From a virus: a stretch of 11,859 nucleotides of DNA. A program made the translations under genes and the position numbers. Under the pieces are notes generated by a model. The model searched no databases and was not told the origin of the DNA. It saw only the letters and a list, made by a program, of their open reading frames with translations. Below, piece by piece: positions 8,822 to 11,859 of the stretch. The stretch lies in the UHGV virus genome UHGV-1565572; one strand, 5' to 3'. Within the stretch, counting starts at the first letter, position 1. Every line of letters begins with the position of its first letter.

Positions 8822-10174
<1,353 letters not shown>

Positions 10175-10223
10175 TCCCCACCTCAATCTCGATAACCAAA
10201 AACAAACTATTTTTCATTTAAAA

Positions 10224-10296
10224 ACAATGGAGTTTGTTTTTCACGCCCCTTTTTACAATATTTCTTGTTTACAACATACAATCTTTCTTGTAATTT
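10224..10296 (+). promoter_or_regulatory. Left operator OL3-OL2-OL1 (434 type) with PL
   Basis: 14-mers ACAATGGAGTTTGT (10224-10237), ACAATATTTCTTGT (10255-10268) and ACAATCTTTCTTGT (10278-10291). Candidate PL: -35 TTTACA (10268-10273), a 17-bp spacer, then -10 TAATTT (10291-10296), reading toward N. Confidence 0.8.
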
Positions 10297-10335
10297 TAAG
10301 CCATCAGCAGGACGCACTGACCACCATGAAGGTGA

Positions 10336-10366
10336 GGCTCTTAAAAATTAAGCCCTGAAGAAGGGC
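10336..10366 (+). promoter_or_regulatory. nutL (boxA + boxB)
   Basis: GGCTCTTAA-AAATTAA-GCCCTGAAGAAGGGC; the boxB hairpin is at 10352-10366. Matches recalled lambda nutL except for the first base of boxA. Confidence 0.85.
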
Positions 10367-10634
10367 AGCATTCAAAGCAGAAGGCTTTGGGGTGTGGTGA
10401 AGCCAGCTAGTCACTGGCAAGTGCTTACCTACTGTTGAGCGGTGAAGCGCTCCCAACGCTAGCAATAGCGTGGACGAGATGGGGAGCCGCGGGCGATAAG
10501 GCCGCCATAACGCGCACGTTGTCGCATGGAAAAATCGCTGGGGTGCCGGTTATACCCCTCCGAATGAGACTCAACAAGCTGGAGCTAGACTACCAGCCAC
10601 CACACCACCAAAGCTAACTGACAGGAGAATCCAG

Positions 10635-10967
10635 ATGGATGCACAAACACGCCGCCGCGAACGTCGCGCAGAGAAACAGGCTCAATGGAAAGCAGCAAAT
10701 CCCCTGTTGGTTGGGGTAAGCGCAAAACCAGTTAACCGCCCTATTCTCTCGCTGAATCGCAAACCGAAATCACGAGTAGAAAGCGCACTGAATCCGATAG
10801 ACCTTACGGTACTGGCTGAATACCACGAACAGATTGAAAGCAACCTGCAACGTATTGAGCGCAAGAATCAGCGCACATGGTACAGCAAGCCACGCAGTGA
10901 AATGGGTGTGACTTGTGTTGGTCGCCAGAAAATGAAATTAGGCAGCAAACCACTGTATGAGGGGTGA
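10635..10967 (+). CDS. N: Antitermination protein N (lambda N-like, with the arginine-rich boxB-binding N-terminus)
   Basis: 110 aa, MDAQTRRRERRAEKQAQWKAANPLLVGVSAKPVNRPILSLNRKPKSRVESALNPIDLTVLAEYH...; matches recalled lambda N over about 85 residues and diverges at the C-terminus. RBS ACAGGAGAA. Confidence 0.9.
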   Translation: MDAQTRRRERRAEKQAQWKAANPLLVGVSAKPVNRPILSLNRKPKSRVESALNPIDLTVLAEYHEQIESNLQRIERKNQRTWYSKPRSEMGVTCVGRQKMKLGSKPLYEG

Positions 10968-10970
10968 TAT

Positions 10971-11222
10971 ATGGAATTTCATGAAAGTGCGATTTATGAT
11001 TTTCGCGCTAACGCAAATTCAGTAAAACCACAGCCAATTGCAGTTCTTTTTAAAACAATGGGGGCGTGGGCTGTTTTATGCTTCGCCGCTGATGACACTG
11101 ACGCAAGAATGGCAATAGGCCAAGAGATGGAGATGGACCCGACAAACGATGAATTCATAATTTATGGCGCTCCATCTAATTACTTACTTGATACCTGCAA
11201 CATTTACAACAAGGCTGCCTGA
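10971..11222 (+). CDS. Hypothetical protein (83 aa), first gene after N in the PL operon
   Basis: ATG at 10971, 3 nt after the N stop, with a GAGGGG RBS. No recognisable motif. Confidence 0.5.
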   Translation: MEFHESAIYDFRANANSVKPQPIAVLFKTMGAWAVLCFAADDTDARMAIGQEMEMDPTNDEFIIYGAPSNYLLDTCNIYNKAA

Positions 11223-11241
11223 TGGTGGCCTTTATTTTTGG
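11211..11241 (+). terminator. Candidate intrinsic terminator (tL1-like position)
   Basis: A 9-bp stem AAGGCUGCC / GGUGGCCUU (two G-U pairs) with a 4-nt loop, followed by UAUUUUUGG. It overlaps the stop of the 83-aa gene. Confidence 0.4.
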
Positions 11242-11261
11242 CATAAACAACAGAGGCTAAC

Positions 11262-11558
11262 ATGGAATTTAAAGGTACTGAAGGTAAGTGGGAAATAATG
11301 ATGGATGGCGATGAGATTAAAATCATCCAGGCAGACTCACTTGAAAATGGCGCAGGCTGGCGTTCGTATATTGCAATCTGTGAGGAAGTTCAATGCATTG
11401 AAGATGCCAATCTAATAGCGGCAGCACCAGACCTTCTCGAAGCACTTCAGTTATTACTTAAGCAATCCAAAAATAGAACAACGACAACATATCCAGAATG
11501 GTATGGAGCTGTTAATAAAGGTCTTGCAGCAATCAGCAAGGCTCTGGTAGGTGAGTGA
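11262..11558 (+). CDS. Hypothetical protein (98 aa)
   Basis: ATG at 11262 with an AGAGG RBS (MEFKGTEGKWEIMMDGDEIKIIQADSLENGAGW...). Its stop overlaps the next start (TGATG). Function unknown. Confidence 0.5.
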   Translation: MEFKGTEGKWEIMMDGDEIKIIQADSLENGAGWRSYIAICEEVQCIEDANLIAAAPDLLEALQLLLKQSKNRTTTTYPEWYGAVNKGLAAISKALVGE

Positions 11559-11758
11559 TGTGCGAGTTTTATGAAGCAGATATCAAACGCCCAGAAATGG
11601 CAAGTGATGCGACATTACGTGATTACTTCGCGGCAAAGGCTATGCAAGCAATGATTAGCAATCCATCGATTATCGATAATGATTCTGATGGAGCTGTTAA
11701 TTATGCAGCAAGCGCTGCATATAAGTTTGCAGACGCAATGCTCAAAGCTCGCGAATAA
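11558..11758 (+). CDS. Hypothetical protein (66 aa), alanine-rich
   Basis: ATG at 11558-11560 overlapping the upstream stop (MCEFYEADIKRPEMASDATLRDYFAAKAMQAMISNPSI...). A 9-bp inverted repeat GTGTATTCA-N10-TGAATACAC follows at 11764-11791. Confidence 0.45.
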   Translation: MCEFYEADIKRPEMASDATLRDYFAAKAMQAMISNPSIIDNDSDGAVNYAASAAYKFADAMLKARE

Positions 11759-11859
11759 GCACTGTGTATTCATTCCAACGAGTGAATACACGGAGCAATG
11801 TCGCTCGTAACTAAACAGGAGCCGACTTGTTCTGATTATTGGAAATCTTCTTTGCCCTC

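Follow-up and report, generated by a model that had tools for sequence, protein, structure and literature searches.

The three small genes that directly follow the antitermination gene N in the virus genome UHGV-1565572 are, in all likelihood, genuine early genes of the accessory kind, carried in mosaic cassettes. The stretch of DNA analyzed here, hereafter called the window, is 11,859 nucleotides (nt) long and covers the immunity and early region of a lambdoid prophage; the three open reading frames, abbreviated below as ORF1, ORF2 and ORF3, occupy its positions 10,971 to 11,758. Taken together, they are best explained as three independent, non-essential cassettes of a hypervariable early-left (PL) accessory region, the products of which would be directed early at the host or its defenses, an explanation to which we give about even chances. 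Counter-defense or host takeover is the most likely role of these products, which we nevertheless propose tentatively. All the elements concerned are already annotated in described phages, the proteins have passed through one published functional screen and the region is a recognized hotspot of accessory genes.

Organization of the Region between N and the Boundary Sequence

The features that matter for the argument, all on the plus strand, are listed below.

10336-10366, plus strand: nutL, with boxA-like GGCTCTTAA and boxB GCCCTGAAGAAGGGC, in a lambda-type PL leader
10635-10967, plus strand: N, antitermination protein of lambda type, 110 amino acids (aa) (Pfam N36, E=1.6e-26; phrog_271)
10971-11222, plus strand: ORF1, 83 aa, starting 3 nt past the N stop
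11211-11241, plus strand: intrinsic-terminator-like hairpin (hairpin at 11211-11232, then TATTTTT)
11262-11558, plus strand: ORF2, 98 aa, 39 nt past ORF1
11558-11758, plus strand: ORF3, 66 aa (from ATG 11558) or 67 aa (from GTG 11555), in TGATG overlap with the ORF2 stop
11759-11859, plus strand: conserved boundary sequence, called 'bsq4' in Sf6, equivalent to the ral-ea10 spacer of lambda

A first-pass annotation made from the sequence alone had described three tightly coupled genes of 83, 98 and 66 aa in the PL operon, separated by 3 nt, 39 nt and a TGATG overlap. The coordinates agree with this description, and so does the operon setting, which is documented by nutL, by the lambda-type N and by the annotation of PL/nutL at the equivalent place in phages mEp043 (as a putative PL) and Sf6. 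The boxB GCCCTGAAGAAGGGC, located at 10352-10366, was recovered as a hairpin in our hairpin scan; we take it to be the boxB of lambda nutL, and the surrounding leader to be the PL leader of lambda. The DNA of N is 98-99% identical to the N genes of mEp043 and Sf101. Tight coupling of all three genes is not supported, however, since ORF1 is a separate module on the other side of the terminator and only ORF2 and ORF3 are coupled, at the level of translation and not obligately.

That these reading frames are more than chance follows from the low nonsynonymous to synonymous ratios (omega) of ORF1 and ORF2, from the conserved families to which the proteins belong and from their ribosome-binding sites. 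The omega value is 0.10 for ORF1 compared with its homologue in Salmonella phage S9-5 (75% identical) and 0.13 for ORF2 compared with that of phage Si3 (both by the Nei-Gojobori method), with synonymous divergence (dS) above 1.5, that is saturated, in both cases. Purine runs resembling Shine-Dalgarno sequences lie 5-8 nt before the starts (GAGGGG for ORF1, AGAGG for ORF2 and AGGTGAG for ORF3). All three products are acidic, with isoelectric points (pI) of 4.2-4.6, and show neither a signal peptide nor a convincing transmembrane (TM) segment.

The mosaic structure of the region emerges from BLASTN comparison with six related loci. The N module extends over 10200-10976, whereas ORF1 together with the terminator (10908-11254) is common to VT2-Sakai and mEp234, which next resume similarity at 11758. 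The terminator alone (11206-11256) is shared with Sf101 and E. coli EH01-18-04-A, both of which have ral before it and carry genes of the ORF2/ORF3 type in addition to ral. ORF2 (11227-11545) is common to mEp043 and the segment from ORF3 onward (11527-11859) to Sf101, while 11759-11859 is found in all the loci compared. Given that this last segment is the ral-ea10 spacer of lambda, the trio, which spans the interval from the N stop to that spacer, replaces the sieB-ral interval of lambda, in keeping with the lambda ral position that had been suggested for it. ORF2 and ORF3 are also internally mosaic, with breakpoints in the motifs AAPDLLEAL, AISKALGxE and RDYFAAKAM/ADAMLKARE. On the basis of these comparisons, the trio consists of three independently reassorting cassettes and is a rare but routine mosaic recombinant.

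The conservation of the trio had been proposed as a check. Each gene recurs in other phages; among 5426 complete E. coli genomes ORF1 is found in 403, the full ORF2-ORF3 pair in 18 and the exact trio in only 4. The region is an accessory region in the sense of Silas et al. (bioRxiv 10.1101/2023.04.06.535777), because its flanks (N, the terminator and bsq4) are 97-100% identical and its content is variable, including a known counter-defense gene.

The First Slot: ORF1 as an Alternative to ral

The terminator that the first-pass annotation had suspected over the end of the first gene is a 9-bp hairpin of -13.9 kcal/mol, AAGGCTGCC-TGAT-GGTGGCCTT, which is followed by TATTTTT, contains the stop codon of ORF1 and carries the annotation of rho-independent terminator in mEp234. 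It is also present at loci having ral as the upstream gene. The 5' arm of the hairpin (AAG GCT GCC TGA; 11211-11222) encodes K-A-A-stop for the occupant of the slot between N and the terminator, hereafter slot 1, as is shown for Ral (C-terminus …NNKAA) and ORF1 (…YNKAA); the product of orf184 in the study of Silas et al. ends similarly in …VDKAA. Because its 5' arm supplies the last codons of these genes, the terminator doubles as the downstream recombination joint of slot-1 cassettes. The upstream joint of the ORF1 cassette lies inside the coding sequence of N, since the final stretch of this gene, some 60 nt (10908-10967), is about 97% identical to that of VT2-Sakai and of mEp234/HK97-type phages, the N of which is otherwise of a different type.

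ORF1 is a positional allele of ral. In 120 IMG/VR contigs containing the exact 29-nt terminator, the gene upstream of it is either Ral (intact in 59, with approximately 17 further ORFs of the Ral type that are short or partial) or, in 44 contigs, ORF1, and in Salmonella phage S9-5 the ORF1 homologue follows sieB, namely at the place that ral has in lambda. Ral (PF11058; lambda/P22/Sf6) and ORF1 have in common the slot directly after N, the K-A-A-stop within the same hairpin, early expression from PL and a similar size (66 aa for Ral and 83 aa for ORF1). Their sequences, in contrast, have no similarity, and the Cys cluster of Ral is absent from ORF1. The earlier statement that none of the three proteins resembles Ral is therefore upheld: no Pfam match was found for any of them at E<=1, and BLASTP against HK544 Ral gave no alignment.

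The same gene as ORF1 is present in many Stx2a phages and, with 98-99% identity, as VT2-Sakai orf20, as mEp234_034 and in HK633 and HK106; the synthetic gene UDP0060 of Silas et al. is nearly identical to it. In the four phages named it directly follows N in every case despite differing N alleles, and these phages lack ORF2-ORF3. Beyond such close relatives the family, which corresponds to phrog_2471 (E=1.2e-60 over the full length; ORF1 has a pI of 4.2), is very narrow. A search of 5.8 billion proteins returned 19 clusters, and the ORF1 profile in an exhaustive HMMER search of 1.84 billion representatives had seven matches, of which three were full-length and two were fragments. The remaining two, long matches in multiple stretches, were rejected: P0262 is a repeat protein on inspection, and P0261 (3126 aa, 43 stretches) was discarded as a repeat artefact on its match pattern alone, without inspection. 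Homologues from Escherichia, Enterobacter, Citrobacter and Klebsiella have 39 invariant columns in their alignment.

The hydrophobic segment that had been noticed in the core of ORF1 is present, yet it is probably not a membrane helix. The AlphaFold2 (AF2) model, which has a predicted local distance difference test score (pLDDT) of 68, shows an alpha-beta-beta-alpha-beta-alpha arrangement in which the hydrophobic stretch forms a beta-hairpin, with low confidence (around 70 there). The maximum of Kyte-Doolittle hydropathy over 19 residues is borderline, 1.68, and the invariant K28 falls midway in the stretch. Moreover, zero segments are predicted by TMHMM for the near-identical UDP0060 (Silas et al., Supplementary File 3). 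On balance, this evidence tips against a TM helix.

The Second Slot: ORF2 and ORF3

The space that extends from the terminator to the hairpin of bsq4, hereafter slot 2, is vacant in 27 of 103 contigs; in the others, at least eight different cassettes are found there, which pair freely with Ral or ORF1. Besides the combination of Y8K6 and ORF3, the alternatives include proteins of 65 aa or 80 aa, membrane proteins of 121-149 aa (Sf6 gene 34 type), Y8K6 followed by a protein of 62 aa, a protein of 44 aa before one of the ORF3 type, and others.

The first-pass annotation had recognized no family among the three products, but all of them belong to PHROG families of unassigned function, and ORF2 (phrog_1273, E=1e-30) can be additionally assigned to the Pfam family PF27050, Phage_P22_Y8K6, through the precomputed PF27050 match of cluster representatives 98% identical to it. 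In RefSeq, a copy 99% identical to ORF2 bears the name 'XkdD/Y8K6 family phage-associated protein'. The protein has a variable, beta-rich N-terminal part, a conserved ANLIAAAPDLLEALQ helix, a variable middle and a conserved AAISKALGxE tail; in its AF2 model (pLDDT 70) the N-terminal part is poorly defined and the C-terminal helical hairpin is confident. ORF2 and the members of PF27050, a family without known function, share the signature (K)EFKGTxGxW … ANLIAAAPDLLEAL … AISKALGEE, while their N-terminal and middle segments are swapped. Our literature search on XkdD/Y8K6, PF27050 or the PHROG identifiers found nothing relevant. An apparent fusion of the N-terminal domain of ORF2 to 'nucleotide pyrophosphohydrolase' or 'DNA polymerase exonuclease' in Mydovirus was rejected as an artefact of feature coordinates that are out of frame. 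Indeed, the coding sequences annotated in Klebsiella Mydovirus OY979426.1 and OY978784.1 (1333-2004 of locus L025 and 1011-1952 of locus L026) have 7 and 17 in-frame stops, respectively, and product names of the 'nucleotide pyrophosphohydrolase' type overlie there a standalone ORF of the Y8K6 family.

ORF3, identical to Sf101 gp33 and Silas UDP0057, has no Pfam family and matches the C-terminal part of two longer profiles, phrog_2201 (E=1.5e-18) and phrog_37111 (E=1.4e-15). The widespread RDYFAAKAM…ADAMLKAR domain that it carries, TLRDYFAAKAMQ…AYKFADAMLKARE in ORF3, with the core TLRDYFAAKAMQ…AY..ADAMLKAR, reads as a two-helix domain, a conclusion drawn from the conserved motifs. The protein is Ala-rich, as had been noted, with 23% Ala. 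There are 1488 related protein clusters at E<=1e-3, with the core motifs conserved across more than 1400 of them, and at least 501 related loci in IMG/VR; most of the ORF3-like proteins occur singly, with a GGxAFP motif at the N-terminus.

A close parallel to ORF2-ORF3 is the gp34-gp33 pair of Sf101 (Silas UDP0123 and UDP0057), which has the same overlap and the same place between terminator and bsq4. However, what Sf101 gp34 shares with ORF2 is the C-terminal half, whereas the N-terminal domains of the two differ (42% identity over 73 residues), and the upstream gene is ral in Sf101 and ORF1 in the window. The first relatives that we considered suggested an obligate pairing of ORF2 and ORF3, which broader sampling has weakened; the two genes are coupled at the level of translation, yet their pairing is not obligate. 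Of note, in three IMG/VR loci (L134, L092 and L142) a 44-aa protein (MNAVEFTKWMAEQDIT…AANALGGE) takes the place of Y8K6 before an ORF3-type or 62-aa gene. This replacement keeps the …ALGGE-stop/ATG junction, suggesting that the junction itself, with its Shine-Dalgarno sequence and overlap, is a conserved recombination joint.

The Boundary Sequence and the Slot beyond It

The segment 11759-11859 shows 100% identity to its counterparts in lambda, HK97 and Stx phages. Its equivalent in Sf6 is annotated as 'bsq4; boundary sequence' and is followed by a terminator homologous to tL2a of lambda, which in the window begins at about 11852 and extends beyond the end. The segment opens with a 14-bp hairpin, CUGUGUAUUCAUUC-CAAC-GAGUGAAUACACGG (11759-11796), which has -21.7 kcal/mol and a z value of -7.4, lacks a U tract and shows no Rfam match at E<=1; it might represent an element of RNA processing or stability or else a recombination joint. 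A non-coding RNA in the region was considered and rejected, given the absence of Rfam matches at E<=1.

In relatives, the slot past bsq4 is occupied by different genes: a 324-aa homologue of Gad1, the Gabija anti-defense protein (L013, 4349-5323; PF25705, E=6.5e-68), a 322-aa protein of the Sf6 gene 33 type without Gad1 match (L001, 5198-6166) or P22 GP17 (L014, 4347-4658). Further downstream lie genes for Abc2/anti-RecBCD, Gam-like and Kil proteins.

Possible Functions of the Early-Left Cassettes

The anti-defense idea advanced by the first-pass annotation is plausible from context. Four observations build this context: the allelic relationship of ral with ORF1; the presence of Gad1, GP17, Abc2 and Gam-like genes downstream in relatives; the score of 'Ral', which ranks second among the accessory regions of Silas et al. 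(Supplementary File 2); and the phenotype of orf184, another gene of the 'Ral' region, which triggers the gop-beta-cII abortive system (Silas et al.). The latter gene belongs to the same hypervariable locus and its C-terminal …DKAA is like that of slot-1 genes, but its sequence is unrelated to all three ORFs and, unlike orf57, orf60 and orf123 discussed below, it has a reported phenotype.

The regulation of the trio can be pictured as follows. Transcription from PL would pass nutL, N and ORF1 and then reach the intrinsic terminator. ORF1, placed before the terminator, would thus share the immediate-early transcript with N and be expressed before antitermination, a timing suited to a protein that is needed at once. 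N-modified RNA polymerase would read through into ORF2 and ORF3, with ORF3 being translated by coupling to ORF2 (UGAUG), and transcription would next cross the bsq4 hairpin and tL2a toward the Gad1/gp17/322-aa slot of relatives, then cIII and kil. Exchange of cassettes would occur by recombination in short joints, namely the 3' end of N, the K-A-A-stop terminator, AAPDLLEAL, AISKALGxE-stop/ATG and bsq4. The three products may be cytoplasmic proteins, small and acidic, each of which binds some protein of the host or a component of its defense early in infection; ORF1 would constitute an alternative to Ral aimed at some other target, and in ORF2 and ORF3 the conserved helices could provide a scaffold, with the swapped variable segments conferring target specificity. 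A more specific proposal, in which ORF1 is an immediate-early inhibitor of a defense other than type I restriction, selected in place of Ral by a large minority of the phages with this frame of N and terminator (44 of the 120 contigs sampled; 403 of 5426 complete E. coli genomes), and/or ORF2 and ORF3 form a joint helical scaffold with swappable specificity segments against a host system, is rather doubtful.

The profile and structure searches that had been recommended did find families, as described above, but no function was assigned by sequence, profile or fold. The three ORFs had no matches in NCBIfam, PADLOC (E<=1), Pfam (E<=1) or, by sequence and profile, the PDB; structure search in BFVD returned only uncharacterized phage proteins, and no similarity of sequence or fold was seen to known anti-defense proteins (Ocr, ArdA, Gad1, Abc2, Gam and others).

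Several considerations weigh against a counter-defense role. Silas et al. synthesized ORF3 (UDP0057), ORF1 with the change Y14C (UDP0060) and the ORF2 variant Sf101 gp34 (UDP0123), as listed in their Supplementary File 3. Their screen challenged ECOR strains, which expressed the 200 accessory genes one per cell, with T phages, P1 and lambda vir. In effect, that study has already subjected these proteins to the assays of restriction alleviation and toxicity that the first-pass annotation had proposed. The corresponding orf57, orf60 and orf123 are unnamed in its main text, which means no reported hit rather than a documented negative, and the columns for follow-up annotation in Supplementary File 3 are blank for all three. 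They are also not among the hits discussed in the related Nature Communications paper (PMC12373910), and in the log of the Silas screen the entry for MG1655/lambda records no hits other than ardA, ral and ocr and does not mention UDP0060. In addition, standalone Y8K6 ORFs of 85-103 aa are found in virulent Mydovirus (Vequintavirinae) among genes of DNA metabolism (ligase, endonuclease VII, deoxynucleoside monophosphate kinase and PnuC-like genes), and the family name 'XkdD/Y8K6' takes in XkdD of PBSX; a general early-phage function would therefore fit as well as counter-defense. Finally, the confidence of the structure models is only moderate (pLDDT 68 for ORF1 and 70 for ORF2).

These same data form the basis of the likeliest rival explanation, unlikely in our judgment, according to which the proteins serve the early development of the phage itself, for instance as small regulators or by modulating replication, recombination or nucleotide metabolism, and do not target host immunity. 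Apart from the Mydovirus neighborhood, the PBSX XkdD name and the lack of a named counter-defense hit in the main text of Silas et al., it could draw on the wide distribution of the ORF3 domain in environmental phages (the IMG/VR loci reported above) and on the label 'transcriptional regulator' given to phrog_30599, which matches ORF3 with E=4e-7. The label, however, is one weak PHROG annotation, and no DNA-binding or enzymatic domain was detected in the three ORFs by Pfam, NCBIfam and PDB searches. A core developmental role is further disfavored by the presence/absence polymorphism of the genes and by their free reassortment with unrelated cassettes.

Another rival, which we regard as decidedly improbable, holds that ORF2 and ORF3 act only as a pair, be it a heterodimeric inhibitor or a system of the toxin-antitoxin kind, the activity of which would be invisible when its components are expressed singly. 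In all the related pairs that we examined, the stop of one gene overlaps the start of the other or lies close beside it, and their adjacency is retained in variants of about 60% identity (P0100/P0205) and, with reversed gene order, in a Providencia prophage. The helical hairpin of ORF2 (AF2 model) and the two-helix domain of ORF3 (read from its motifs) could pack as a four-helix bundle, and a joint activity of the two proteins would have been missed by screens such as that of Silas et al., which tested one gene per cell. Nevertheless, an adjacent ORF with the Y8K6 motif is present in only 7 of 79 sampled viral loci having an ORF3-like gene, and the ORF3 domain occurs alone in Klebsiella prophages. 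Other genes, encoding proteins of 62, 52, 41 and 156 aa, can follow Y8K6, and the 44-aa protein mentioned earlier can stand for Y8K6 before an ORF3-type gene. Models of defense or toxin-antitoxin systems gave no match either (PADLOC at E<=1, Pfam).

It is very unlikely that the genes are 'morons' expressed in lysogens to protect the host, for instance by superinfection exclusion or defense. Some slot-2 cassettes of other phages do encode membrane proteins (the 121-149 aa proteins resembling that of Sf6 gene 34, and Silas UDP0047 with its two TM segments), and sieB lies in this region of lambda and S9-5. The three ORFs, on the contrary, lie in the PL transcript past nutL, their products have no signal peptide, no convincing TM segment and no PADLOC match, and promoter-like sites in the region (two found versus 2.6 expected from shuffled sequence) show no excess, so that an internal promoter for ORF2-ORF3 was also rejected. 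The notion that the ORFs are non-functional filler between conserved joints, which might appeal to the absence of detectable function and to the empty slot 2 of some contigs, can be dismissed as extremely improbable in the face of the strong purifying selection on ORF1 and ORF2, the invariant columns of ORF1 across four genera and the ORF3 core motifs retained in so many clusters.

Were any of the three a counter-defense protein, it would add a new family to the anti-defense repertoire of lambdoid and Stx phages, and the slot adjacent to N would become a reliable place to look for others. ORF1 adjoins N in VT2-Sakai and many Stx2a phages. A useful by-product of our analysis is the precise definition of the cassette boundaries (the terminator encoding K-A-A-stop, the joint at AISKALGxE-stop/ATG, and bsq4), which could be used for a systematic harvest of alternative occupants.

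Other Features of the Window

Two further genes precede the PL leader.

9141-9773, plus strand: LexA-type cI
9770-10174, plus strand: gene of 134 aa, the ATG of which overlaps the cI stop codon (158 aa in the ORF listing, from the upstream ATG 9698)

The second of these genes occupies the position of rexA/rexB in lambda and is therefore probably co-transcribed with cI in lysogens; the same arrangement, with a coding sequence overlapping the end of cI, is annotated in Sf101. Its product, which belongs to phrog_2651, has an N-terminus resembling a signal peptide and would be a candidate for a secreted or periplasmic protein expressed by the lysogen.

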